This document shows, piece after piece, positions 1,095 to 37,656 of a stretch of DNA of 39,519 nucleotides. Both the position numbers and the translations under genes were made by a program. Under the pieces are notes generated by a model. It was not told where the DNA came from. It did not search any database and saw only the letters and a program-made list of their open reading frames with translations. This DNA is from a bacterium (lineage in GTDB: Bacteria > Patescibacteriota > Minisyncoccia > UBA6257 > JACOXY01). How positions within the stretch are numbered: position 1 is the first letter of the stretch; every line of letters starts with the position of its first letter. The DNA is taken from positions 1 to 39,519 of the forward strand of contig JAUXUB010000042.1 in NCBI GenBank assembly GCA_030680955.1. The letters run 5' to 3'.

Positions 1095-1123
1095 TGGTTA
1101 AAGTATAGCATAAGATATAAAAA

Positions 1124-1517
1124 CAATATTTACTGACCCGATGACCAGAACAGGGGGAATAATATTTGGGTCATCAGGTCAGAAGAGGGACAGGGAAAAA
1201 ATCAATGCGAATTAATAGAATAACTATACCATATTGAAGTTACATGAGGAAAAAGGAGGGGTGGGGATAAGTTTAGGGCTAAGCTAAAAAACCAATATTA
1301 TGACTTCCGATGTCCGGAGACAACTGCATTAATATTTGGGACATCGTAAGTCGGTATAACCATGGGGTGGGGATAAGTAGACACCAATATTTACTGACCC
1401 GATGACCAGAACAGGGGGAATAATATTTGGGTCATCAGGTCAGAAAAAAATGGGAGGGTTATCAGATGAGGGAGGGTAACTGCATTAATATTTGGGTAGT
1501 CGGATGTCGGACTACCA
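1124..1517. repeat. cluster of AATATT-box hairpin repeats (family H1), copies at 1124-1182, 1293-1354, 1385-1443, 1478-1517
   Basis: Copies 1124-1182 and 1385-1443 are identical. Each copy reads CAATATT + 14-nt arm + purine-rich spacer + (T/C)AATATTTG + complementary 14-nt arm. Confidence 0.85.
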
Positions 1518-2288: not shown

Positions 2289-2382
2289 TCACAGCTTATT
2301 TGATGAGTAAACATATGATATAATAAAAGTGGAAGTAGGAAAATATTTGATCATCAGACTATTATCACAGATAAAAAACGCT

Positions 2383-2442
2383 CAATGTTATGAAGTCGGA
2401 TAACCTACTGCAAAAAAATCAATATTTGGGTTATCCGACTTC
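2383..2442. repeat. AATATT-box hairpin (H1) copy
   Basis: Arms GAAGTCGGATAACC and GGTTATCCGACTTC pair perfectly. The loop ends in CAATATTTG. Confidence 0.8.
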
Positions 2443-2481
2443 GAGAGACAGCGAAAGTCGGGGGCAAATAAATAAGAAACA

Positions 2482-4089
2482 ATGCCGGAAAAAACGATAA
2501 AAAAGAAAAAGGGGACTCATTTGCTTACAAGAACGATAATTTTTATGGCCATTATCGCTGTTGTGCCGCTAATTATTGCTGCGCTATCAATTCGCATTTT
2601 TGATAATCTGCAAAAAAAAGATATTGATGCAAGACAAATTGACGTTATTTTAAGAGTTGAGCATGATCTTAATAAAGAATTTTCTACAAAGCCAAATACA
2701 AATGGGACAATAATTGACTCATCCGGTAACCAAGACAAAAAAACAATAATTGGGTTACCAGATGAGAGCACTGCTAAACTAAAAGAAACATTAAAGAGCG
2801 TTATTACGGAGAATGAAATTAAACGAACGGGTTATATTTTTATAACTGACGATAGAGGAATGCTTTTGGTGCATAGTCAAAAAGAGGTGAGCGAACCAGT
2901 GGATTTGAGCTCTTCGCCAATTGTAGGAAGTCAACTTTTCCAAGGAAATATAAAACTTGAGGGACAACCAAGCTACGATAGTTATTGGGGAGTGCCGGTT
3001 ATTGGAAATGGAAAAATGACAACCATTGTGGGTTTTGACAAAAAAATAGGAGTTTTTGTTGAGCTACCCGCAAAAGAATCTAATACAGATTTCGTGTTTC
3101 TTGCAACCCAATTTTCAATCGTCGCAGTATTTGCTTTTCTCCTCACCGCAATATTTGGTTATTATCTTGCAAGTGGAATAATCTCTCCCATTCGTGAATT
3201 GCAGAGAGGTACCAAACGTATAGTAGAAGAAAAATTTGATGAACCAGTTAAAATAAAAAGCGCAAACGAAATAGAAGATTTGGGCGAAGCATTTAATACA
3301 ATGATGGGTGGCCTAAAAGAACTTAAAGAACTACGAGAAGAATTTATTTTCGTTGCCGCGCATGAACTTCGCACTCCTGTTACTGCAATTAAAGGTTTTA
3401 TTCAATTGGTGCTGGAGGAGCAAGCTGCAACAGCAAATACAGGCGTTGCCAATCCTTCGACTACGCTCAGGACAAGAGAATACCTAACAAAAGCTATTGG
3501 AGCAAACGAGCGTCTTATTACATTAGTTAATGATTTGCTTGAAGTAGCCCGAGAAGAAGCAGGAAGACTTGAGATTGAAGTGAGGCCTACAAACATTACA
3601 GAACCTATTGCAACTACAATTTCAGAGCTTTCTCAACTTGCCAAAGAAAAACAGATAGAAATAAAATACTCACCCTCCCAATTTTTATCTGACAAAAGTT
3701 CGGAGGGTAAACCTGCAAAAGATTTGCCACAAGTACAGGGCGATGCGCGCCGCATTGGTGAAGTTACAACAAACCTTATTGGGAATTCTATAAAATATAT
3801 GGGTGGCGCTGGAACTATTACAGTTTCGCATGAAATCAAAGGCGACAAACTTGTAACGTACATTGCAGACACTGGAACAGGAATTTCCAAAGAAGCCCAA
3901 GGTAAATTATTTGAAAAGTTTTATAGAGTTTATAACGAGAAAACAAAAGATGTTAAAGGTACAGGACTCGGACTCTTTATTGTTAAGAAAATTATAGAAA
4001 AAATGGGTGGGAAAATTACTGTAGAATCCCCCACGTTACCAAGTGGCGGCGGAACGACATTTAGCTTTGAGTTGCCAGTGGCGAAATAG
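2482..4089 (+). CDS. sensor histidine kinase (2 TM, periplasmic sensor, HAMP, HisKA, HATPase_c)
   Basis: H-box FVAAHELRTPVTAIKG, G-boxes DTGTGI and GTGLGLFIVKKIIEKMGG. Hydrophobic segments lie near residues 17-37 and 205-228. Confidence 0.9.
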   Translation: MPEKTIKKKKGTHLLTRTIIFMAIIAVVPLIIAALSIRIFDNLQKKDIDARQIDVILRVEHDLNKEFSTKPNTNGTIIDSSGNQDKKTIIGLPDESTAKLKETLKSVITENEIKRTGYIFITDDRGMLLVHSQKEVSEPVDLSSSPIVGSQLFQGNIKLEGQPSYDSYWGVPVIGNGKMTTIVGFDKKIGVFVELPAKESNTDFVFLATQFSIVAVFAFLLTAIFGYYLASGIISPIRELQRGTKRIVEEKFDEPVKIKSANEIEDLGEAFNTMMGGLKELKELREEFIFVAAHELRTPVTAIKGFIQLVLEEQAATANTGVANPSTTLRTREYLTKAIGANERLITLVNDLLEVAREEAGRLEIEVRPTNITEPIATTISELSQLAKEKQIEIKYSPSQFLSDKSSEGKPAKDLPQVQGDARRIGEVTTNLIGNSIKYMGGAGTITVSHEIKGDKLVTYIADTGTGISKEAQGKLFEKFYRVYNEKTKDVKGTGLGLFIVKKIIEKMGGKITVESPTLPSGGGTTFSFELPVAK

Positions 4090-4113
4090 GTAACAAGTGA
4101 AGTGAAACATGTG

Positions 4114-4269
4114 ATACCATTTCCAATTAACCTCTACTCTTTTAACCTCGTCTTTGCGAGGAGGAACGACGAAGCAATCCAGATTTATCCCGTTATTTCC
4201 TGGATTGCCGCGGGCTTCGCCCTCGCAATGACAAAAGTCTTATAGGAAGTGGCTAATTAAGGATAGTAT
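4114..4269. mobile_element. 156-bp MITE-like element (family H3), copy A, inverted relative to copies B and C
   Basis: Near-identical to 10490-10635 and 37483-37638. It has terminal inverted repeats ATACCAT..CAATTAACC / GGTTAATTGG..ATGGTAT and an internal long imperfect hairpin (GTCATTGCGAGG..CCTCGCAAAGAC). Confidence 0.85.
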
Positions 4270-4320
4270 AAGATAAGAAATGAAACATGGGAAAAATGTA
4301 GAATTTGGAAAAAATGAAAA

Positions 4321-4629: not shown

Positions 4630-4697
4630 TAATTACTCTCCTCTCCTAAAATACTGGGTAGATTATATCACAATTAATTAAAATTGCAACCTAAAAG

Positions 4698-4901
4698 CAA
4701 TATTATGACATCCGACTACCAAGACAAGAGAGGGCCTCAATATTTGGGTAGTCGGATGTCGGGGAAAAATGAGGTCTCAATATTTATGAAGTCCAATGTC
4801 CAGCGACAACTGCATTAATATTTGGGACATCGGACTTCAGGGGGTCATCAGGTCAGAAAAGAGACGAGGGGAAATCAATATTTGGGTAATCGGATGTCGG
4901 G
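4698..4901. repeat. cluster of AATATT-box hairpins (H1), copies at 4698-4762, 4778-4838, 4840-4901
   Basis: Arm pairs are GACATCCGACTACC/GGTAGTCGGATGTC and GAAGTCCAATGTCC/GGACATCGGACTTC. CAATATT boxes recur every 38-41 nt. Confidence 0.85.
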
Positions 4902-5924: not shown

Positions 5925-5956
5925 TACGTCACACCTCGCTAAAGCTCGGTACATAT

Positions 5957-6050
5957 AATTCGAATGTTACGAATAAAGTAACGAATGATACGAATAGTTA
6001 GTATCCCAATTCGTTATATTCGTCGAGAAATTCGTTTAATTCGTATTACA
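5957..6050. repeat. ATTCGT periodic palindrome (H2) in the 16S trailer
   Basis: 4 inverted ACGAAT units followed by 4 ATTCGT units, ending in ATTCGTATTACA. The same end sequence occurs at 14317-14328. Confidence 0.8.
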
Positions 6051-6226
6051 TACAGCTCACCTTAGTGAGATGCAACGAGTCGTGGCTTGTGGCCTTACGA
6101 CTAATACCATTGACCAAATATTAGACTTGGTCGATCGACAAACTTTTTGTATTTAATTAATCCACGGACAGCTTCCGCTACCCGTGCCTTGTTACGACTT
6201 CTGCCATGTCACCGAACTTACCCTAA

Positions 6227-6407
6227 CCCAGCTTGAAATTTATGATTTCAAGCTGGAAAACTCTAAACTCTAATATCTAAACTCTAAACAAATGGGAAAT
6301 AAATTCTCAAAACTCAAAACTTTGAATTTTGGAATTTGAGATTGTTTAGGATTTAGGATTTCGATTTTAGGATTTCCCAGCTTAAAGTTCACAAACTTTA
6401 AGCTGGG
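6227..6407 (-). other. about 180-nt expansion at the tip of 16S helix 44
   Basis: It lies between the CCGCCCGTCAC region and AAGTCGTAACAAGG. Two CCCAGCTT..AAGCTGGG hairpins flank a hairpin of CTCTAAA / TTTAGGA 7-nt units. Confidence 0.75.
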
Positions 6408-6488
6408 CTTCAGGTATTCCCGGCTTCCTTGCAGTGACGGGCGGTGAGTACAAGATCCGAGAACGTATTCACCGCGCCATAGCTGATG

Positions 6489-6519
<31 letters not shown>

Positions 6520-6670
6520 GCGAGTTGCAGCCTCCAATCCGAACTGGGGCCAGATTTATGGGATTAGCTCCGGCTTGCGCCTTGGCAACCCTTTGTTCTG
6601 ACCATTGTAGCACGTGTGTAGCCCAGGACATCAGAGGGCCACGCTGATTTGACGTCATCCCCGCCTTCCT

Positions 6671-6800
6671 CCCCCCTCTTTGTTCACAAATGCGAAAGCT
6701 GATAGCTATTAGCTTATAGCTTTTAGAAAAAAAACTTTTAAATTCCTAAAAGCTAACAGCTCTAAGCTGAAAGCTTTGCGCTTATGCGCAAAGAGGGGGG
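6671..6800 (-). other. about 130-nt expansion hairpin in the 16S V7 region (helix 39-40 neighbourhood)
   Basis: CCCCCCTCTTTG...CAAAGAGGGGGG closes arms made of AGCTNNT-type 7-nt units. It sits immediately 5' (RNA sense) of GGAGGAAGGCGGGGATGACGTC. Confidence 0.7.
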
Positions 6801-6869
6801 CGGTTCTGTGTGACACTTGTAACACACAGTAGGGGTTGCGCTCGTTACCCCACTTAAGGGAACGTCTCC

Positions 6870-7788
6870 TATTTTTTTTAATCTCTAGATTACTTTAGAG
6901 TTAAGACTATACCTTCATCCCTCTCCACGCATGGGGAGGGAGCTGGCGTGTTAGCTAGAAAAACAATTGTTTATTTTTCTAACTCCTCCCTACTACGCCT
7001 TCGGCGAATAGGGAAAGTCGTTACAGGGTCTGGAAGTTTATATCGCATACTAGGAATGATATGAGGTAAAATTACCTCAAGAAATTTATTGTGTGAATTT
7101 TTTCTGATTGTTAGCTTTTTATTACTTCCTATCACTGTCTCAATGCCAAATTGTTCTAATAGGACATTTTGTACTCTTTGCATACTCAATAGATCGAAGC
7201 AGTCGGTTGATATTATAACTTTTTCCCCAGTCCAACAACCATCATCCATATACCAAACTGCTAATGACATTGGAGTAAGTTGAAGTCCTTCTGGAAATAC
7301 TTTCTTACCTTCCGAATAAAAAATTGTTCTCCATGGCCTAAAATATTGCCTAAGAACAAAGTATATAGAAGCGTATTGCTTATTACGCTTTTTATATTCT
7401 CTAACAATTTCTCGTGGTGATGCTGGATATGCTAAAGATTTTAACTCATCATATTTCCATATGACATAATCTTTTTGAGCGTTTGATTGCTCAATCCTGA
7501 TTTGTCCCTTAGGACGAATCGTAGCATCTCCTAGCACGCAACCAATTAAAATTTCACGCTGTCTCACGTTTACACGTAATACTAAATTTTTCCTAGCACA
7601 AAGCATTATTGGAACTTCCAAACTTCCCACGGTATTGCCCTCTGGTAACTGGTCACAAGACGCTGGTTTCTGGTACATTTTTTAATTATACCAGTCACCA
7701 GGCATTTAACACCAGCTATCAGTTCGGGTTTCACCGTTATGAGCCAGATTTTCAATCAGGATTACTCCTGAAAGTCTCGAGATTTCAA
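6870..7788 (-). mobile_element. about 919-bp insertion (probable group I-type intron) in 16S near E. coli position ~1070
   Basis: It interrupts CAGCTCGT|..|GAGACGTTCCCTTAAGT. About 110 nt and 100 nt of hairpin-rich non-coding flanks surround a LAGLIDADG ORF. Confidence 0.75.
6971..7678 (-). CDS. LAGLIDADG homing endonuclease (two motifs) inside the 16S insertion
   Basis: Motifs ILIGCVLGDATI and LAVWYMDDGCW are about 100 aa apart. The true start may be the internal Met at MLCARKN. Confidence 0.85.
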   Translation of the reverse strand: MYQKPASCDQLPEGNTVGSLEVPIMLCARKNLVLRVNVRQREILIGCVLGDATIRPKGQIRIEQSNAQKDYVIWKYDELKSLAYPASPREIVREYKKRNKQYASIYFVLRQYFRPWRTIFYSEGKKVFPEGLQLTPMSLAVWYMDDGCWTGEKVIISTDCFDLLSMQRVQNVLLEQFGIETVIGSNKKLTIRKNSHNKFLEVILPHIIPSMRYKLPDPVTTFPIRRRRSREELEK

Positions 7789-7900
7789 GATACGAGCTGA
7801 CGACAACCGTGCAGCACCTGTTCCTAGGTCCTTGAGAGACAACTCGCCTTTCGACAAGTCTTCCTAGAAATTTCAAGCCCTGGTAAGGTTCCTCGTTTAC

Positions 7901-7937
<37 letters not shown>

Positions 7938-7946
7938 TCCCCGTCT

Positions 7947-7978
<32 letters not shown>

Positions 7979-8079
7979 TCCCAGGCGGTCTGTTTAACGC
8001 GTTAGCTAAGCCACTCCGAGGGTCGATACTCGAAATAGCGAACAGACATCGTTTACGGCGTGGACTACAAGGGTATCTA

Positions 8080-8867
8080 CAATTTTGTTACTGAACAAAA
8101 TTGTAATTTTCAATTTTCAAACACCAATTTACAATTAAATTCCAATGCTTAAAACTTAAAATTACAAAATTATTACTGGCATGGACATTTCTACCATGCT
8201 CTGCATGTCGCCATGCAGTTCGGACTATATCTTATCAAAAAAATTATATGGCGAGTGAGATTCACTCGCCTTTTTTTGATCTCAGCGTATAGTCTCTGAG
8301 GGAATCACAAATTTATCTTGGTCTATTTTAAATCTATCTGGAATTAATTGCCTCATCAAGCAACCTATCTGGCGCTAAACGAAGCCCGCACACAGCACAA
8401 TGCGCATGCTTTTTATTTTCCAAACTCGTATTATTTTCAGAACAATTAATATCCATACAAACAGGTCTGGCTACAGTGGACAAACAATTTGAACACCATC
8501 CAGCGATTGTTTCCATGATATCCTCTTTCTTTGTGATCTTCCCTGCTGGTTGTCTGCACCAACAGATTTTTACCTTTCGGTACTGTTGGATACTCAGGGT
8601 TTCCAGCATATAGCTAAGTTATCCGAGCACATAAAGCTTATGTGCTCGGGGACTATTCTCCTCCATACCCATGGAGGGATTATTTTTTTGATTTTTGATT
8701 TCTAGCTGTGGTCAGGTCTTTGTGAAGAAGCTCTCGGAGCTCGATTTGCTTGGTCCGCCTCTGGCGGAAATCGAGCGAGAGCGCAGGTCCGATTTTTCGC
8801 AGGAAAAAATCGAGACCGATTCTAAACAAAGATCTGACCGCAGTAGACGCAAAAAAATAATCAGTTA
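8080..8867 (-). mobile_element. about 788-bp insertion in the 16S 790-loop region (GGAT|TAGATACCC)
   Basis: It splits the GGATTAGATACCC block. The 5' exon can end in U and the insert in G, as in group I introns. It contains many perfect helices, e.g. CCGAGCACATAA..TTATGTGCTCGG and GCTCGATTT..AAATCGAGC. Confidence 0.7.
8334..8609 (-). CDS. Cys-rich small ORF inside the second 16S insertion (function unknown)
   Basis: METIAGWCSNCLSTVARPVCMDINCSENNTSLENKKHAHCAVCGL has CxxC..C..C..CxxC, which looks zinc-ribbon-like. The probable start is the ATG at 8516. I see no LAGLIDADG, GIY-YIG or HNH motif. Confidence 0.35.
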   Translation of the reverse strand: MLETLSIQQYRKVKICWCRQPAGKITKKEDIMETIAGWCSNCLSTVARPVCMDINCSENNTSLENKKHAHCAVCGLRLAPDRLLDEAINSR

Positions 8868-9708
8868 ATCCTTTTTGCTCCCCACGCTTTCGTGTTTCAG
8901 GGTCAGGTGCGCCCCAGTGAACTGCCTTCGCCTTTGGTATTCCGCACGATATCAACGGATTTCACCCCTACACCGTGCGTTCTATTCACCTCTAGCGCCC
9001 TCTAGCACTGCAGTATCCTAAGCAGCCTTACCGTTAGGCGGTAAGATTTAACATAAGACTTGCAGAGCCCCCTACACACCCTTTACGCCCAATAAATCCG
9101 GATAACGCTCGAGGTCTACGTATTACCGCGGGTGCTGGCACGTAGTTACCAACCTCTTTCCATACGCTACTCTGCCGAAGCTTGTTTGCGTATTACCGCA
9201 GTTTACAACCCGAAGGCCTTCTTCCTGCACGCGGCGTCGCTCCATCAGGCTTTCGCCCATTGTGGAATATTCTCGACTGCTGCCTCCCGTAGGAGTACGG
9301 ACCGTTTCTCAGTTCCGTCGTTGGAGATCGGGCTCTCACCCCTCCTACCCGTCATAGCCTTGGTGAGCCATTACCTCACCAACTAGCTGATAGGACCTAA
9401 GCCACTCCCGAAGCGAATTGCTTCTTTAATATTGCTATACCATCGGATATTACCCCATCTTTCAATGGGCTATCTCCGACTTCGGGGTATGTACTAGGGT
9501 ATTACTAACTCGTTCGCCACTATCCGGCGCGTAGCGCCGGAACATTTAAATGTTGAAATATTTAAATATCCCAGTGCTACGCACTGGACCGTTCGACTTG
9601 CATGCCTTATCCACGCCGCCAGCGTTCATCCTGGACCAGGATCAAATCCTCTTTTAAAAATAAATTGCAAAGTACACTCGATCGAGGACCTTGCAATTAA
9701 TCTTTCTA

Positions 9709-9853: not shown

Positions 9854-9984
9854 CCCGCCCAAGCCTTCGCGCTTCTAGCGAAAGAAACTCTAAAATCTAA
9901 TTTCTAATTTCTAAATTCTAAAATTTTTGTTTAGGATTTAGATTTTAAACTTTAGGCTTTCCTTCTGAAAGAAGGCTGGGGCGG
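9854..9984. repeat. periodic-unit hairpin in the 16S leader
   Basis: CCCGCCCAAGCCTTC / GAAGGCTGGGGCGG closes arms of CTAAAAT/CTAATTT units paired with TTTAGGATTTAGATTTT. Confidence 0.7.
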
Positions 9985-10440: not shown

Positions 10441-10489
10441 AAATACAATTTTGTAATAAAAAGAAAAGTGTGATATTTTATACTATCCC

Positions 10490-10635
10490 CAATTAACCAC
10501 TTCCTTTAAGACTTTTGTCATTGCGAGGGCGAAGCCCGCGGCAATCTAGGAAATAACGGGATAAATTTGGATTGCTTCGTCGTTCCTCCTCGCAAAGACG
10601 AGATTAAAAGAGTAGTGGTTAATTGGGGATGGTAT
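10490..10635. mobile_element. MITE-like element (H3), copy B
   Basis: Same sequence family and orientation as 37483-37638. Confidence 0.85.
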
Positions 10636-10669
10636 TAGAACAAGATCATAAAGAAAAAAGGAGAAGTAT

Positions 10670-13629: not shown

Positions 13630-13772
13630 AAAAAATCTAAAAAATAAAATATCAAATCTAAAATATACATCTCAAAATTAAAATCTTAAAAACGTGAAAC
13701 TGCTAAATCAAAATTGACCAGATTTAAGATGTAGTTTTGAGATTTAACCTTTGAGATTTCAGATAATTTTTA
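13630..13772. repeat. AT-rich periodic-unit hairpin (family H4) filling the rpsG-fusA spacer
   Basis: It shares the 23-nt core TAAGATGTAGTTTTGAGATTTAA (13725-13747) with 20799-21. The arms are AAATCT/ATCTCAAA units. Confidence 0.75.
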
Positions 13773-14240
13773 CTATCTCGCGAAATGAGCAAAAGCTCTG
13801 TTTGCTTCTGCCATTCTGTGGACATCTTGTTTCTTCTTTATAGCTGCGCCTTCATTCTTATAGGCTGCAAATAATTCTTCAGCAAGTTTATCTGCCATTG
13901 GCTTTCCTTTTTTTGCCCTAGCCGCAGAAATAATCCATCTAGCCGCTAACATAAAGCGTCTTTCACGCCTTACTTCATGAGGAACCTGATAGTTTGCTCC
14001 ACCAACTCGGCGTGAACGAACCTCAACCAAAGGAGATGCATTCTCTAATGCTTTTTCGAAAACATCTTTAGGGTCTAAGCTTTGTTCCTTTTTAATTTTT
14101 TCTAATGCGCCATAAACCACTCTTTCTGCTACGCTTTTTTTACCATCGTGCATAACATAGTTAATAAATCGCGAAATAGCGATGTTATCAAATTCAATAT
14201 CTGGCTTATAAAATTTTTTGTGGATTTGTTTTTTACGCAA
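13773..14240 (-). CDS. rpsG: 30S ribosomal protein S7
   Basis: ..VMHDGKKSVAERVVYGALE..VEVRSRRVGGANYQVP matches S7. The start is an apparent TTG. Confidence 0.95.
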   Translation of the reverse strand: MRKKQIHKKFYKPDIEFDNIAISRFINYVMHDGKKSVAERVVYGALEKIKKEQSLDPKDVFEKALENASPLVEVRSRRVGGANYQVPHEVRRERRFMLAARWIISAARAKKGKPMADKLAEELFAAYKNEGAAIKKKQDVHRMAEANRAFAHFAR

Positions 14241-14328
14241 GATAAAGCGAATACTACGAATTTATGAACGAATGATACGAATAAAATATTCGTATCATTC
14301 GGTATTCATTCGTGTCATTCGTATTACA
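14241..14328. repeat. ATTCGT periodic palindrome (H2) filling the rpsL-rpsG spacer
   Basis: ACGAATGATACGAATAAAATATTCGTATCATTCGG core with extra units on both sides. Confidence 0.85.
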
Positions 14329-20841: not shown

Positions 20842-22062
20842 ATGAAACTTATCGATATAGCATACAAAAAAGCCATTATTGCCCTAGAGCACTGCGCTAA
20901 ACCAGTTGGTTTTTATGCTTCTGGTTTAAAAGGTGGATACGAGGCCATTTGGGCGCGCGACTCAATGACAACTTCACTCGGCGCTTCGCTTGTCCGACTT
21001 CCGATGTCCAAAATATTAATGCCGTCTATTTCCGGACATCGGAAGTCACAAAATTGGGCTTTTAAAAATACTTTCCGGAAAAGCCTAGAAGCCCTTGGCA
21101 ATAATCAAGCCTGGCACGGAGCAATCCCTAACGCGGTTGGCTGTTGGAATAACGAAAGACAATCAGACGTAACATTTAACTCAATTGATTCCAGTTTATG
21201 GTTTATTATCGGGCATTATGTTTACTCATATGCCTACGCAGATAAATCATTAATCAAAAAAAATAAAAGGGAAATAGATGCTGCGCTTAAATGGGTTCAA
21301 TTTCAAGATCCAAATAACGACGGGCTTCCAGTGCAACAACCAACAATGGACTGGGAAGATATCTTCCCTCACAAATATGGCAGAGTTCTAAACACGCAGG
21401 CACTTTACTATGCTGCATTAAAATTTACTGGTGATAACAAAAAAGCTGAGCAGTTGAAAAGAATTGTAAATGGTGAGACACAAAAAACTATTTCGCTCTA
21501 TGATAAAAAGAGAGGTTATTATTCACCTTGGGTTTGGAAATATCACGGACCACTTGGTCGCGAGGAAGAACATTGGTTTGATACACTTGGAAATTTACTT
21601 GCAATTGTAACTGGACTTGCAACACCAGCAATTTCTAAAAACATCTTAAATTATATTGATAAAAATAAAGTTAACCGTCCATTTCCATGTAAGGCGATTT
21701 GGCCGACTATAAAGAAGGGCGACAAAGAATGGCATTGGTACTTTGACTCAGCGGAGTGCAAAAATCCATATCACTATTCAAATGCCGGCATCTGGCCATT
21801 TATTGGTGGATTTTATGTAGCTGCTTTAATAAAAGCGGGACAATTTAAAAAGGCGGAAAAGGAGTTAGAAAAACTGGCCGAAGGAAACAAAGAAGTTCAT
21901 CCAAAAGAAAAACGCGTTAAGGAATATGGTTTCCAAGAATGGCTTCATGGCAAGACTGGTAAGGCCATGGGCGGCTCCTCTGCTTACCAAGGTTGGTCAG
22001 CTGGAACGTATATTTATGCCTATGAATGCGTAAAAAATAAAAAAGTATTATTTTTTAAATAA
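20842..22062 (+). CDS. (alpha/alpha)6-barrel glycoside hydrolase, GDE_C / GH100-invertase-like
   Basis: IWARDS, TMDWEDIFPHKYGRVLNTQALYYAAL, YHYSNAGIWPFIGGFY and QGWSAGTYIYAY motifs. Confidence 0.7.
   Translation: MKLIDIAYKKAIIALEHCAKPVGFYASGLKGGYEAIWARDSMTTSLGASLVRLPMSKILMPSISGHRKSQNWAFKNTFRKSLEALGNNQAWHGAIPNAVGCWNNERQSDVTFNSIDSSLWFIIGHYVYSYAYADKSLIKKNKREIDAALKWVQFQDPNNDGLPVQQPTMDWEDIFPHKYGRVLNTQALYYAALKFTGDNKKAEQLKRIVNGETQKTISLYDKKRGYYSPWVWKYHGPLGREEEHWFDTLGNLLAIVTGLATPAISKNILNYIDKNKVNRPFPCKAIWPTIKKGDKEWHWYFDSAECKNPYHYSNAGIWPFIGGFYVAALIKAGQFKKAEKELEKLAEGNKEVHPKEKRVKEYGFQEWLHGKTGKAMGGSSAYQGWSAGTYIYAYECVKNKKVLFFK
20992..21057 (-). repeat. H1 hairpin copy inserted in frame in the hydrolase CDS (codons 51-72)
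   Basis: The reverse complement CCAATTTTGTGACTTCCGATGTCCGGAAATAGACGGCATTAATATTTTGGACATCGGAAGTCGGACA aligns at about 85% identity with copy 1293-1354. 66 nt = 22 codons. Confidence 0.8.
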
Positions 22063-22080: not shown

Positions 22081-22150
22081 CTCCGACTTCCTCTAATCGG
22101 ATGACCCAAATATTGATGCGTTGGTCTCCGGTCATCTGATTAGTTAATAT
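22081..22150 (-). repeat. H1 hairpin copy (reverse orientation)
   Basis: Arms are CTAATCAGATGACC/GGTCATCCGATTAG. The loop is GGAGACCAACGCATCAATATTTG. Confidence 0.8.
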
Positions 22151-22165
22151 TAGCCTTTAGTTCTA

Positions 22166-34900: not shown

Positions 34901-35648
34901 GGCGTTTTATTATTGGAAGCATTCCAACTGTTTGACTCTCAACCGAAAATCCAACTCCCGCTCCACACATAGATAAATACATAATCTCGGCAAAGTCGGG
35001 AAGCTTTGACGGTGCAATAAAAGAACAATTGTAAGCTGTTACGTTTGTTTTTTTAGCCGCTTTACCTGCAGACCACATAAGTCGCATAGAAGGCATTACT
35101 TCTTGTTTTAAGATTGCTTCTCTAATTTCTTCGCATTCTTTTTCCTTCAATTTATTCCCAAGATTTTCTTTCATAAAATCTATGTAGCGACCAACTGTCT
35201 CTATCCAAGTTTCTCTTCGTCCTTCATCCTCAATCCATCGCGAGTAAGAGCGGTAGTAAATAAATTCTGAAAGTGGGTTTCTAAAATAACTTTTACTCAT
35301 TTGAGCTAATTGCTGGACATGCTCTGGCACATCTTTTACTTTATCGCGCACGTTCGATCGTTCATTTCTATATAAAATGTAAGCTTTTGCAACTTTTGAA
35401 AAATCTGAAAGTATAAGAGACTCTTCAACTAAGTCCTGAATCTCTTCAATATGCGGAACATACTCATTTGGAAACTTTTTTTCTAATTCTTTTATAACGC
35501 TATCTGTTAAAATTCCCGGATCTCGAGAAAGTTCACCCTCGCCAGTTGCTTGCATCGCACGATACACGGCATTATATATTTTTTGGCGGTCAAAAAATAC
35601 CACTCGACCGTCTCGCTTCCTTACTGACTCAAATTTTTGTTTCGACAT
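31881..35648 (-). CDS. nrdJ: class II (B12-dependent) ribonucleotide reductase with an N-terminal ATP-cone, interrupted by an intein
   Basis: ATP-cone-like VRKRDGRVVFFDRQKI. The active-site TNP|C..GEIxL..FCNL block is split by 480 aa. Mature size would be about 775 aa. Confidence 0.85.
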   Translation of the reverse strand: MSKQKFESVRKRDGRVVFFDRQKIYNAVYRAMQATGEGELSRDPGILTDSVIKELEKKFPNEYVPHIEEIQDLVEESLILSDFSKVAKAYILYRNERSNVRDKVKDVPEHVQQLAQMSKSYFRNPLSEFIYYRSYSRWIEDEGRRETWIETVGRYIDFMKENLGNKLKEKECEEIREAILKQEVMPSMRLMWSAGKAAKKTNVTAYNCSFIAPSKLPDFAEIMYLSMCGAGVGFSVESQTVGMLPIIKRQTGKMLITHVIEDSKEGWGDALTHGLKTWYSGHDVKFDYSALRPAGARLMTMGGRSSGPEPLRALLDFARTKILSRQGKRLSTVDVHDVICKIGEVVVMGGVRRTALISLSDLDDDKMRDSKAGKFYLTEPQRSMANNSATYNSKPTTTEFLGEWLALAQSGSGERGIFNRGGLEKQMPERRFKKFKKHLATSGTNPCVSGDTLVYVADGRGHVSIKQLTEEGKDVPVFCLDNKNKTVVRYMRNPRVTGFREPIYRMMLDDGSSVKATANHKFRLKTGEYRQVKDLHPGDSLQIITKFEASIKDIFPKANSRSQDYWWLNSGKTNNAAEHRVIAEFYYNTQIPKDFVVHHRDRNAQNNTPENLELLSKQAHDSLHSSLMIGDANPMKRALFEWNEQKWIEYRAKHSKNNTGTRNKNFSGITDEELREHALALSKKLEKRFTNKDWIYYAKENGLPQFFSKWRRDHLDGVLGLAKWAAIELGFDYADADPRVVASYKKYTKDGYNCEIRDGQVVIKKNCEVCGKRFEAGIGRREYGVCGISCGLKRAWSNPELKSDFVDRLNEVHHKRKELRRMEQAKIFTDLKFKIGREPLKIEWLSACRENNISSEIARVSSPFRTYENLREFAEMYNHKVASIEFIGYEDVYNGTVDEYHNYFVGGFASETRNGKRKLVYLNNLQCGEIILRSKSFCNLTEVVARAEDTEKTLLRKIELATILGTYQSTLTNFPYLSKEWKQNCDEERLLGVSITGQWDSHAARNPKTLTKMREYAIEVNKEYAKRFGVNRSASITCVKPSGTVSQLVDASSGMHPRHAKFYIRRVRIAASDSLFQMLKEQKFPYYPEVGQSSESASTYVLEFPVKAPGGSIFKDDLSAIEQLEYWKKVKENYTEHNPSVTISVGNDEWIETSNWLYKNWPILGGLSFLPREDHVYQLAPYEEITEERYKELTAKLPQVDFSYIVTYEKDDQTQGAKELACVSGVCEVELPAVAMPVNSEINPVRSESSNESTA
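32871..34310 (-). mobile_element. 480-aa intein (residues 447-926) carrying an HNH endonuclease domain
   Basis: Block A CVSGDTLVYV, block B KATANHKF, HNH VVHHRDRNAQNNTPENLELLSKQAHDSLH, block F VYNGTVDEYHNYFVGG. It ends ..LNNLQ|CGEI. Confidence 0.85.
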
Positions 35649-35655
35649 ATAAATA

Positions 35656-35745
35656 ATTCGAATATTACAAATTTTTTTACGAATGATACGAATAATTTTT
35701 TAATTCGTTACATCCGAAGTTATATTCGTGACGTTCGTATTGTTA
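35656..35745. repeat. ATTCGT periodic palindrome (H2) directly upstream of the reductase start
   Basis: TACGAATGATACGAATAA ... AATTCGTTAC..TATTCGTGACGTTCGTATTG. Confidence 0.8.
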
Positions 35746-37300: not shown

Positions 37301-37482
37301 ATGAACATTAATCAAATCGCGAATTAAGGTCTCTAATTCTCTCAAATGCCGTAAGATTTCGAGAATATTCGAGATTCCAATTCGAGACTTTACTCATAAG
37401 TTACCTAATTATCGCTACTATCCTACTACAAAATACTAGAAGAATGCAAATCAATAAAAAAGGAGCAATTATGGCCCAATTT

Positions 37483-37638
37483 ATACCATCCTCAATTAAC
37501 CACTTCCTAAAAGACTTTTGTCATTGCGAGGGCGAAGCCCGCGGCAATCCAGGAAATAATGAGATAAATCTAGATTGCTTCGTCGTTCCTCCTCGCAAAG
37601 ACGAGATTAAAAGAGTAGTGGATAATTGGGGATGGTAT
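37483..37638. mobile_element. MITE-like element (H3), copy C, in the ftsA-ftsZ spacer
   Basis: ATACCATCCTCAATTAACCAC...GTGGATAATTGGGGATGGTAT. Near-identical core to copies A and B. Confidence 0.85.
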
Positions 37639-37656
37639 TACAACGCATTCTGAATA

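Follow-up and report, generated by a model that had tools for sequence, protein, structure and literature searches.

In-frame colonization of genes by palindromic repeats has so far been regarded as peculiar to Rickettsia, apart from sporadic cases of REPs or MITEs inside genes elsewhere. The Rickettsia repeats, RPE-1 to RPE-10 (Ogata et al. 2000, 2002; PMC10969869, PMC1779305), are 100-150 bp long in the account that gives their size (PMC1779305). REP/BIME elements, including the intragenic GTAG- and CGTC-tagged REPs, are hairpins of 20-40 nt (PMC3733652), and REPs too sit inside some genes, replication and repair genes among them. MITEs such as ERIC, Correia/NEMIS, RUP, Nezha and BOX are small, non-coding, structured elements with inverted-repeat ends, and they form occasional in-frame fusions with host ORFs (PMC10969869). 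Finally, PATEs, which derive from IS200/IS605, carry a variable hairpin with a conserved short 5' motif.

Here, we analyzed a 39,519-nt stretch of bacterial DNA (the window), in which a hairpin repeat had been predicted to be inserted in frame in a hydrolase gene in the manner of the Rickettsia elements. Our results support this reading. We estimate at about 85% the probability that the 66 nt concerned are a non-autonomous palindromic-repeat insertion of a family that we call H1, translated within a GH100 gene and tolerated as a poorly ordered loop. The three checks proposed with the original prediction, i.e., alignment with orthologues, modeling of the structure and a scan for further in-frame copies, all came out in its favor. 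The parallel with Rickettsia held for behavior, to which the likeness to RPEs is limited. In our judgment the 66 nt are a real palindromic-element insertion that is RPE-like in behavior, and the family appears to be undescribed so far.

The basic description of the element proved accurate. It begins on a codon boundary, 150 nt from the ATG at 20842, and its 66 nt contain no stop codon and translate as VRLPMSKILMPSISGHRKSQNW. The predicted identity of about 85% to an intergenic copy was also recovered, as the reverse complement of the element and positions 1293-1354 were identical in 55 of 66 columns; against 1289-1356, 56 positions were identical (56/64 over the overlap). The arms form a perfect 14-bp hairpin with a loop of 24 nt, and the internal box lies immediately 5' of the second arm when read in the orientation of the element. 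Folding as RNA gave -27.9 kcal/mol (z = -4.7), and 0 of 200 shuffled sequences were as stable. When 3 mismatches are allowed, the 14-mer arm is found 9 times in the window against 1.8 expected, a count reached by 0 of 100 shuffles. The in-gene copy scored 75 bits (E = 8e-15) against a covariance model of the family, a match that is partly by construction because the model was built from seven of the window's copies, this one included. The features are collected in Table 1.

Table 1. Host gene, in-gene hairpin and H1 copies in the window.
Feature	Position	Strand	Remarks
Intergenic H1	1122..1186	+	arms CTGACCCGATGACC / GGTCATCAGGTCAG
Closest intergenic H1 copy	1291..1356	+	84 bits; arm 1 the same as in the in-gene copy; overall ~85% identity
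Intergenic H1	1383..1447	+	61-nt core 1385-1445 100% identical to 1124-1184
Partial or rearranged H1	1458..1512	+	box and second arm, no matching first arm; 15 bits
Intergenic H1	2381..2446	+	ends 36 nt before the start codon of the histidine kinase gene
Second in-frame H1, in histidine kinase gene (2482-4089)	2706..2770	+	47 bits, E = 2e-8
Intergenic H1	4696..4764	+	
Intergenic H1	4776..4842	+	
Partial or chimeric H1	4843..4900	+	stray second arm, loop, box, unmatched arm
Host gene, 406-aa GH100/GDE_C-type (alpha/alpha)6-barrel glycoside hydrolase (predicted)	20842..22062	+	frame intact
In-frame H1 element inside the GH100 gene	20992..21057	- (opposite to covariance-model orientation)	encodes VRLPMSKILMPSISGHRKSQNW on the + strand
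Left arm of the in-gene hairpin	20996..21009	+	GACTTCCGATGTCC
Conserved internal box of the in-gene copy	21008..21017	-	AATATTTTGG (family consensus AATATTTGGG)
Right arm of the in-gene hairpin	21034..21047	+	GGACATCGGAAGTC; perfectly complementary to the left arm
Intergenic H1 just downstream of the GH100 stop codon	22089..22154	-	same position in L005 and L075

The host gene product is predicted to be a GH100/GDE_C-type hydrolase, with Pfam matches to GH100 (PF12899, 68.8 bits; cut-off, 23.6) and GDE_C (PF06202, 36.4 bits; cut-off, 21), and it retains the residues that are invariant across orthologues. Foldseek placed the invertases InvB and InvA at the top of the matches to its AlphaFold model (TM about 0.7), the nearest folds being the GH100 invertases 5z74 and 5gop. 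The host aligns to InvA/InvB over the C-terminal half only, and the offset of this alignment would favor D170/D173 and E366 as candidate catalytic residues over D40 of the WARDS motif, which we had considered for this role. The model has a mean pLDDT of 88.4, which falls below 50 for residues 55-68. The insert is modeled as a low-confidence loop between helices 38-48 and 70-87; both flanking helices are confident, and the rest is a confident GH100-like barrel. The loop would probably lie at the surface, a placement taken from the very part of the model where confidence is low.

The H1 unit measures ~65 nt and consists of a CAATATT box, an arm of 13-14 nt, a loop of 12-20 nt ending in AATATTTGGG, and the complementary arm. 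Every copy has the CAATATT box 5' of arm 1, and in some subfamilies AATATT-like boxes lie on either side. The family hairpin showed 95.9% of cells paired and compensatory changes in 9 of its 14 pairs, which was matched by 0 of 500 shuffles. There are 10 copies in the window. The second in-frame copy, in the histidine kinase gene, has the arms CTCATCCGGTAACC / GGTTACCAGATGAG and encodes (N)GTIIDSSGNQDKKTIIGLPDE, and exactly those 22 residues are absent from the six closest homologues of the kinase. Dozens of additional in-frame copies were found in other CPR genomes. Altogether, 33 of 98 distinct copies in CPR genomes and metagenomes lie in frame in long ORFs, a count in which, by construction, a stop-bearing copy could not be scored as inside an ORF. 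Hosts confirmed by Pfam include SecA, two CCA-adding enzymes, a 2-hydroxyacid dehydrogenase, an asparagine synthase, UvrD and DprA, together with class I and class II aminoacyl-tRNA synthetases, two GT4 and one GT2 glycosyltransferases.

In the public genomes and metagenomes scanned, true H1 copies were found in CPR/Parcubacteria records only, and none in Rickettsia or Rickettsiales. Boxes and arm vocabulary are near-identical across Liptonbacteria, Harrisonbacteria, Portnoybacteria, Parcubacteria records and Saccharibacteria-labelled MAGs. Copies are dispersed over many genomes singly, as head-to-head pairs, in clusters and inside unrelated genes. One of the tightly flanked intergenic copies was seen in a cluster of ribosomal-protein genes, with an ORF of the cluster on either side.

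The gene order GH130-GT4-GH100 is conserved among the orthologue loci, with a second GH130 next where the contig is long enough, and the GH100 genes compared are therefore orthologues. In their alignment, exactly the hairpin segment was extra, and the full insert was present only in the window, P0001, P0002 and P0003. P0004 has a 15-aa remnant, and P0005 and P0006 have none of the insert; P0005 and P0007 carry short unrelated extras at the site. P0006 and 25 more distant aligned orthologues read LV/LA-xxx-FK (or LK/FQ/FR), i.e., they have a 3-residue linker, commonly in the form LVGxK-FK. Between LV and FK these empty sites have 3 residues and the window 23, which makes a net gain of about 20 residues (60 nt), and the 22 added residues claimed originally were nearly right. 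In each full carrier the DNA of the insert is an H1-type hairpin, and no orthologue (0) encodes a homologue of the 22-aa segment in DNA other than the hairpin, in keeping with the original prediction. The insert is not specific to one genome; because it is common to at least four orthologues, it is, as far as the sequences tell, old or recurrent.

The inserts are 66-72 nt long, and all are in frame and without a stop. P0002 reads its second arm in another frame (DIGSRN vs GHRKSQ) and returns to the original one further on. Comparison of the window with L002 and L004 shows saturation at four-fold degenerate sites (identity, 0.31-0.35), yet the hairpin arms of the window and L002 are 86-93% identical. 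Orthologous in-gene hairpins were 92.9% paired and included 4 compensatory pairs. Judged from these alignments, pairing of the in-gene hairpin is kept despite saturated neutral sites, even across a differing reading frame. This suggests active upkeep of the hairpin, whether through selection on its structure as DNA or RNA or through gene conversion with other copies as donors.

We propose that one H1 copy landed in frame in the GH100 gene, most likely in the ancestor of a small Liptonbacteria-related clade. The insert would be translated with the gene, as its conserved frame suggests, and would add ~20 poorly ordered residues as a loop connecting the first two modeled barrel helices. This loop would sit at the end of helix 38-48 opposite to the invariant W-x-R-D motif, and at such a distance the enzyme would tolerate it. 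More generally, H1 has probably spread, in the past or at present, in the way of REP, MITE or RPE elements, through a trans-acting protein that recognizes the hairpin and the AATATT boxes, and copies in coding sequences would persist only in open orientations and frames that give hydrophilic loops.

Comparison with the described systems places H1 near each of them. Like RPEs, it is a palindromic repeat found both between genes and in frame in unrelated, still functional housekeeping genes of small-genome hosts, the inserted peptides are judged compatible with the fold, and some in-gene copies are ancient and clade-wide (RPE-7 in PheT, 63-84 bp; H1 in GH100). In contrast to RPEs, which belong to one genus of the Alphaproteobacteria, H1 occurs in several candidate phyla or classes within CPR/Parcubacteria, has AATATT boxes beside a variable, co-varying stem and measures ~65 nt; size and host phylum make homology unlikely. 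With REPs, which are short hairpins in many copies, it shares the occurrence of its hairpins in head-to-head pairs and clusters, stems that vary by subfamily and a conserved short single-stranded motif. However, H1 is longer, has a 12-20-nt loop with a conserved box and bears neither GTAG nor CGTC at the base of the stem, where the consensus reads ...AATATTTGG/G... and CAATATTT../ (slash, edge of the stem); in some subfamilies CGTC occurs within the loop, 11 nt 5' of arm 2. Of the copies sampled, about one third are intragenic, far above what is usual for REPs, and no RAYT gene was found with approximate queries in the ORFs of L001-L139 and the window.

H1 also shares with MITEs their general build, with complementary arms of 13-14 nt near both ends and no ORF of its own in ~65 nt, and a presence/absence pattern between related genomes. 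It is among the smallest of such elements, and in the two empty/filled comparisons (GH100, histidine kinase) the flanks are too diverged to place junctions or a target-site duplication. We know of no parent insertion sequence with ends that match H1. By analogy with PATEs, H1 might be recognized as a single-stranded DNA structure and inserted beside a short target without duplication. Unlike PATEs, which have separate left- and right-end hairpins, it has a single hairpin, and no Y1/HUH transposase was found in the searched loci (L001-L139 and the window, approximate queries). Specifically, phmmer with IS200 and IS608 queries, which were approximate, gave no IS200/IS605-like TnpA match in the 3449 ORFs (~1 Mb) of these loci, and neither a transposase nor another mobilizing protein is encoded in the window.

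These results would extend a behavior known from Rickettsia to the Candidate Phyla Radiation, a very large, uncultivated, small-genome part of bacterial diversity, in which one hairpin family is common to several candidate phyla and places about one third of its sampled copies in ORFs of housekeeping genes. H1 may thereby account, at the DNA level, for some of those lineage-specific insertions in CPR proteins that have lacked an explanation, and its inserts can show, as a natural experiment, in which loops conserved enzymes accept ~20 extra residues. Annotation is affected as well: peptides encoded by H1 (e.g., GTSDVPNID..RTSDVQNI) can yield spurious "repeat" similarity among unrelated CPR proteins.

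A more far-reaching view, which we put forward tentatively as a possibility, is that H1, beyond being selfish DNA in decay, is a Parcubacteria-wide structured element recognized by a putative conserved protein or RNA machinery, serving both as a signal at the DNA or RNA level and as a source of surface loops in essential proteins. It derives from the constancy of the hairpin and AATATT boxes across candidate phyla and within coding sequence at saturating divergence, despite the frame change. If true, H1 would contribute to the lineage-specific protein insertions of CPR, e.g., those in SecA, aminoacyl-tRNA synthetases, UvrD and the CCA-adding enzyme.

Among the alternatives to an insertion tolerated as a loop, one holds that the hairpin, in the gene and in the family at large, has been exapted, so that its DNA or RNA structure is functional as a site bound by a conserved CPR protein, in mRNA processing or stability, or as a ribosome pause, with the peptide as a by-product. 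The compensatory changes at neutral saturation, which extend to the second arm of P0002 with its changed frame, speak for this idea, as do the near-identical boxes and arms in several candidate phyla and the intergenic copy that follows GH100 at the same position in three lineages. We nevertheless consider it rather unlikely. Gene conversion among selfish copies would give the same pattern, P0005 and P0006 lack the in-gene copy, and the orientation of intergenic copies relative to neighboring genes is unbiased (29 vs 27). There is no U-tract directly after the hairpin, and this together with the random orientation led us to reject a directional promoter or terminator role. Rfam, with 0 family matches at gathering thresholds, also ruled out a known RNA family; at E <= 1 it returned only sub-threshold types of generic hairpin (miRNA precursors, RNA-OUT). 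The persistence of an in-gene hairpin past neutral saturation makes the choice between selfish and maintained-for-function testable.

Recurrent, site-specific insertion is a second, similarly doubtful alternative. Here, H1 would target an AATATT-like sequence, the lineages of window/P0001, P0002/P0003 and P0004 would have gained their copies independently, and the conserved hairpin would reflect young copies of different subfamilies and not upkeep at the site. IS200/IS605 elements use a short 5' target sequence, to which the CAATATT box of H1 can be likened, and this box, universal 5' of arm 1, could itself be target sequence. The K-K-F codons of the empty GH100 site (AAAAAATTT) offer a possible AATATT-like target, and the 5' box of the histidine kinase copy (ACAATAATTGAC) aligns with ACCATAGAC of an empty homologue. 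Moreover, the arms of L004 (CTTGCGAAGAC type) match an intergenic subfamily of L005 and are related to the type in L050, unlike those of the window. The carriers do not form a monophyletic group in the gene tree (bootstrap, 1.5%), where the empty P0005 and P0006 branch among them, and a single gain therefore requires later losses. On the other hand, the position, orientation and left junction (CTTGTx/CGACT) are identical in all carriers. An atypical right junction, ACAAAATTGG, which differs from the family consensus AAATATTGA, is found in the window, in L004 and in the remnant of L005, with ACAAAATTTA in its place in L001; the window and L002 both have the unusual box AATATTTTGG, and the L005 site has the appearance of an eroded rather than a fresh copy.

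It is very unlikely that the insert is removed or bypassed, as a mini-intron or by hopping of the kind known from T4 gene 60 or mitochondrial 'byp', so that the protein gains no residues. CPR genomes are rich in intervening sequences, and the 16S gene of the window is itself interrupted and carries a LAGLIDADG ORF; known ribosomal bypass signals also include stable hairpins. However, the reading frame stays open through each of the four sequenced versions of the insert and through the 33 copies found in long ORFs, the latter scored so by construction, and the internal frame change of P0002 is compensated before the end of the element, as expected only if the insert is translated. Matched take-off and landing codons are absent, as is a stop at the 5' edge, and six tightly flanked intergenic copies that we inspected lie between separate genes and not between two halves of one. 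In terms of marker peptides for GH100, one spanning RLPMSKILMPSISGHRK would indicate translation and one joining LGASL to AFKNTF would indicate removal.

Even less probable is that the clusters at 1122-1512 and 4696-4900 are TIGR-like guide arrays, with the in-gene sequence as a target or stray unit. TIGR stem-loop arrays consist of tandem units with variable palindromic stems and occur in CPR (PMC12045711), and the tandem hairpin clusters of the window, with their co-varying stems, resemble them in this. We rejected a TIGR-Tas array because the window has no Nop-domain (Tas) gene, the ORF between the clusters being the histidine kinase, because the arms are diverged forms of one sequence rather than unrelated spacers, and because copies are dispersed singly, head-to-head and inside unrelated genes in many genomes; there is also no conserved box C / box D pair. 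Finally, although loops of glycoside hydrolases vary in length and unrelated inserts occur nearby in other orthologues, a native lineage-specific GH100 loop that resembles H1 by coincidence or assembly artifact is effectively refuted by the match to the family model (partly by construction) and the perfect hairpin, by the presence of the same element at the site in four assemblies made independently from different samples, and by peptide frames that differ among orthologues while the DNA hairpin persists.

With respect to carriage of H1 by phage, the single match in viral contigs scored 12 bits under the model, which is at the level of chance, and this route was rejected. The window also contains a ~165-nt MITE-like palindrome in three copies, which is more typical of MITEs.

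The in-gene copy of H1, a family of ~65-nt hairpin repeats, lies in an ORF whose product, 406 aa long, has Pfam matches to GH100 and GDE_C and its nearest named homologues in Candidatus Liptonbacteria. It reads GTCCGACTTCCGATGTCC-AAAATATTAATGCCGTCTATTTCC-GGACATCGGAAGTC-ACAAAATTGG, and its RNA folds at -27.9 kcal/mol (z = -4.7). As originally predicted, its reverse complement resembles an intergenic copy (~1291-1356; 55-56 identical positions, ~85% over the overlap). The predicted reading frame was also confirmed: position 20992 is 150 nt past the ATG and therefore falls on a codon boundary, and the encoded peptide, VRLPMSKILMPSISGHRKSQNW, contains no stop. With up to 3 mismatches allowed, the arm 14-mer occurs 9 times, against 1.8 expected.

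Insert-site states were read from an alignment of 30 hydrolase homologues. The compared genes share the order GH130-GT4-GH100, with another GH130 after it on contigs that are long enough, which identifies them as orthologues. The window protein and homologues P0001 (90% identity), P0002 (76%) and P0003 (74%) carry an insert of 22-24 aa, and P0004 has a 15-aa remnant. P0005 is without the hairpin and has a short tandem duplication, LVKNPFKNPF; P0007 has a short unrelated extra, LVGNPFDKAQGKRFK; P0006 and 25 more distant orthologues have the short linker LV/LA-xxx-FK (or LK/FQ/FR). Thus, the segment is indeed extra relative to most orthologues, but the net gain is ~20 residues rather than the 22 claimed. 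In a Liptonbacteria relative (GCA_016182095.1, locus L002), an RVT_1 reverse transcriptase gene and a bAvd gene lie between GT4 and GH100; this pair looks like a diversity-generating retroelement, and the window lacks it.

Analysis of the orthologous insert DNA showed that 92.9% of cells are paired over the four inserts. The P0001 insert has the window's arms with one mismatch, while the arms of P0002 (GACTCCCGATGTC / GACATCGGGAGTC) and P0003 (GACTTGCGAAGAC / GTCTTAGCAAGT) contain one and three compensatory pairs, respectively. The 69-nt insert of P0002 has its second arm in a different reading frame (DIGSRN vs GHRKSQ), with the frame restored downstream. Four-fold degenerate sites of the window gene are only 0.31-0.35 identical to those of L002 or L004, i.e., saturated, and yet the arms are 86-93% identical between the window and L002, which argues that conservation acts on nucleotide sequence or structure and that the peptide is not its target. 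This persistence could be due to selection on the hairpin or to gene conversion by other H1 members; the L004 arm type is also seen in an intergenic copy of L005, and a related type in L050.

We favour a single ancestral insertion, followed by erosion in P0004 and loss in P0005 and P0006. In a neighbour-joining tree, the window and P0001-P0006 form a clade with 98% support. Repeated insertion at an AATATT-like hot spot would fit the finding that the carriers do not group together (support for their monophyly, 1.5%), as the pairs window plus P0001 and P0002 plus P0003 fall on opposite sides of the basal split. However, the window's atypical junction ACAAAATTGG recurs in L004 and in the L005 remnant (in L001 it is ACAAAATTTA), and we consider repeated insertion less likely. 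In three lineages, intergenic H1 copies also occupy a conserved position directly 3' of the GH100 stop codon; L075 has the downstream but not the in-gene copy.

The AlphaFold model of the hydrolase (mean pLDDT 88.4, pTM 0.91) is nearest to the GH100 invertases InvB and InvA. By offset to these enzymes, aligned over the C-terminal half only, D170/D173 and E366 are the probable catalytic residues; the conserved D40, in the WARDS motif, probably has no catalytic role. Consistent with the proposed surface loop, the insert is modelled as a low-confidence segment (residues 55-68, pLDDT <50) between confident helices 38-48 and 70-87. Because it begins at the C terminus of the helix headed by invariant W37/R39/D40, it probably lies on the opposite face from these residues.

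In the window, H1 comprises 8 full and 2 partial intergenic copies plus the in-gene copy, with the layout CAATATT - arm - loop - AATATTTGGG - arm'. An alignment of 7 copies showed 95.9% paired cells and compensatory changes in 9 of 14 pairs, reached by no shuffle. The covariance model built from these copies, the in-gene copy among them, identified a second in-frame copy, of the kind the original prediction had proposed to look for, in a histidine kinase gene (47 bits); its product, NGTIIDSSGNQDKKTIIGLPDE, is exactly missing from the six closest homologues (83-55% identity). Two further lineage-specific inserts distinguish this kinase from its homologues; the DNA of the second, which may be a degenerate H1 relative, forms a 7-bp hairpin (ACCCTCC...GGAGGGT) whose loop contains a CAATTTTT box. 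Two intergenic copies, separated by 261 nt, share 61 nt at 100% identity, and the motif GGGGTGGGGATAAGT occurs twice in the same cluster region (about 1260 and about 1366), suggesting recent local duplication.

Coordinates of H1 copies and other features in the window and in fetched loci (L)
Feature	Record	Position	Remark
GH100 hydrolase ORF	window	20842-22062	
In-gene H1 copy	window	20992-21057	
Left arm	window	20996-21009	14 bp, perfect complement of right arm
Right arm	window	21034-21047	14 bp, perfect complement of left arm
H1 copies downstream of GH100	window	22089-22154	
	L005	11280-11325	
	L075	1543-1588, 1631-1696	
Histidine kinase H1 copy	window	2706-2770	
Other kinase inserts	window	3425-3460, 3672-3712	AATANTGVANPS, QFLSDKSSEGKPA
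Identical H1 copies	window	1124-1184, 1385-1445	
RVT_1 and bAvd genes	L002	7453-8798	
GH100 genes with other inserts	L005	10001-11248	
	L075	272-1540	
	L076	3001-4269	
Asparagine synthase gene	L087	4072-6060 (-)	three in-frame H1 copies
16S rRNA gene	window	6163-9649 (-)	
LAGLIDADG_2 ORF	window	6971-7678 (-)	in largest 16S gap
~165-nt repeat	window	4110-4275, 10474-10641, 37480-37644	
A/T-rich motif clusters	window	5950-5999, 14237-14286, 35648-35697; 6342-6377, 9927-9962; 6258-6288, 9885-9915, 13632-13662	

Scanning 185,579 species genomes for the repeat pattern returned 69 loci, and copies confirmed by the covariance model were found solely in CPR records, titled Liptonbacteria, Harrisonbacteria, Portnoybacteria, Parcubacteria or Patescibacteria, together with Saccharibacteria-labelled MAGs and one record titled only 'uncultured bacterium'. 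A metagenome scan gave 61 loci, almost all true copies and many from Hainich ('Hain') sites, judging by record names; a viral scan gave no true copies. One third of the distinct copies (33/98) lie inside long ORFs (≥150 codons, with ≥25 codons on each side of the copy), most of them in the frame that yields GTSDVPNID-x-N-x-RTSDVQNI. Pfam-confirmed hosts are SecA, CCA-adding enzyme (two), 2-hydroxyacid dehydrogenase, UvrD, GT4 (two), GT2, DprA, asparagine synthase (three copies in one gene), class I aminoacyl-tRNA synthetase (two copies) and class II aminoacyl-tRNA synthetase. The asparagine synthase family recurs in L124, and a giant surface-protein ORF of 2236 aa (L022 / L088) also has three copies. 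Intergenic copies showed no orientation bias towards neighbouring genes, and head-to-head pairs are frequent among them.

H1 has no Rfam match. A TIGR array was rejected, as the window has no Tas gene and the arms resemble one another in sequence, and phmmer with approximate queries found no IS200-like transposase in the fetched DNA. None of six inspected, tightly flanked intergenic copies interrupts a gene, and this speaks against removal of the element from mRNA. H1 behaves like the Rickettsia palindromic elements (PMC10969869, PMC1779305), but is half their size and has its host in another phylum; it also behaves like intragenic REPs (PMC3733652), but fails the REP tag test. No account of REP, MITE or RPE-like elements in CPR turned up in full-text literature searches.

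Other GH100 orthologues have different in-frame, hairpin-forming inserts at other positions, for example TTSGPGRAS in P0004 and P0006, and ALRSLGEAWPAIRSFSEGW (DNA CCATCCGAAGCTTTAGCGAAGGATGG) in P0005. P0010, P0022 and P0038 contain similar motifs (RSLGEGW / RSFSEGG), suggesting that additional GC-rich hairpin families enter coding sequence. The window also holds a second palindromic repeat, unrelated to H1 and without a match in Rfam, whose three copies are 92-93% identical; MITE-like in appearance, it folds as a single long hairpin (-77.7 kcal/mol, z = -9.1). In the window, which belongs to the CPR/Parcubacteria, long insertions split the 16S rRNA gene into three Rfam-matching pieces; together with its homing endonuclease ORF, this gene shows the rRNA intron organization that is characteristic of CPR. 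Finally, intergenic DNA of the window contains clusters of short A/T-rich motifs of the TACGAAT, TTTAGGATTT and AAACTCTAAA types.
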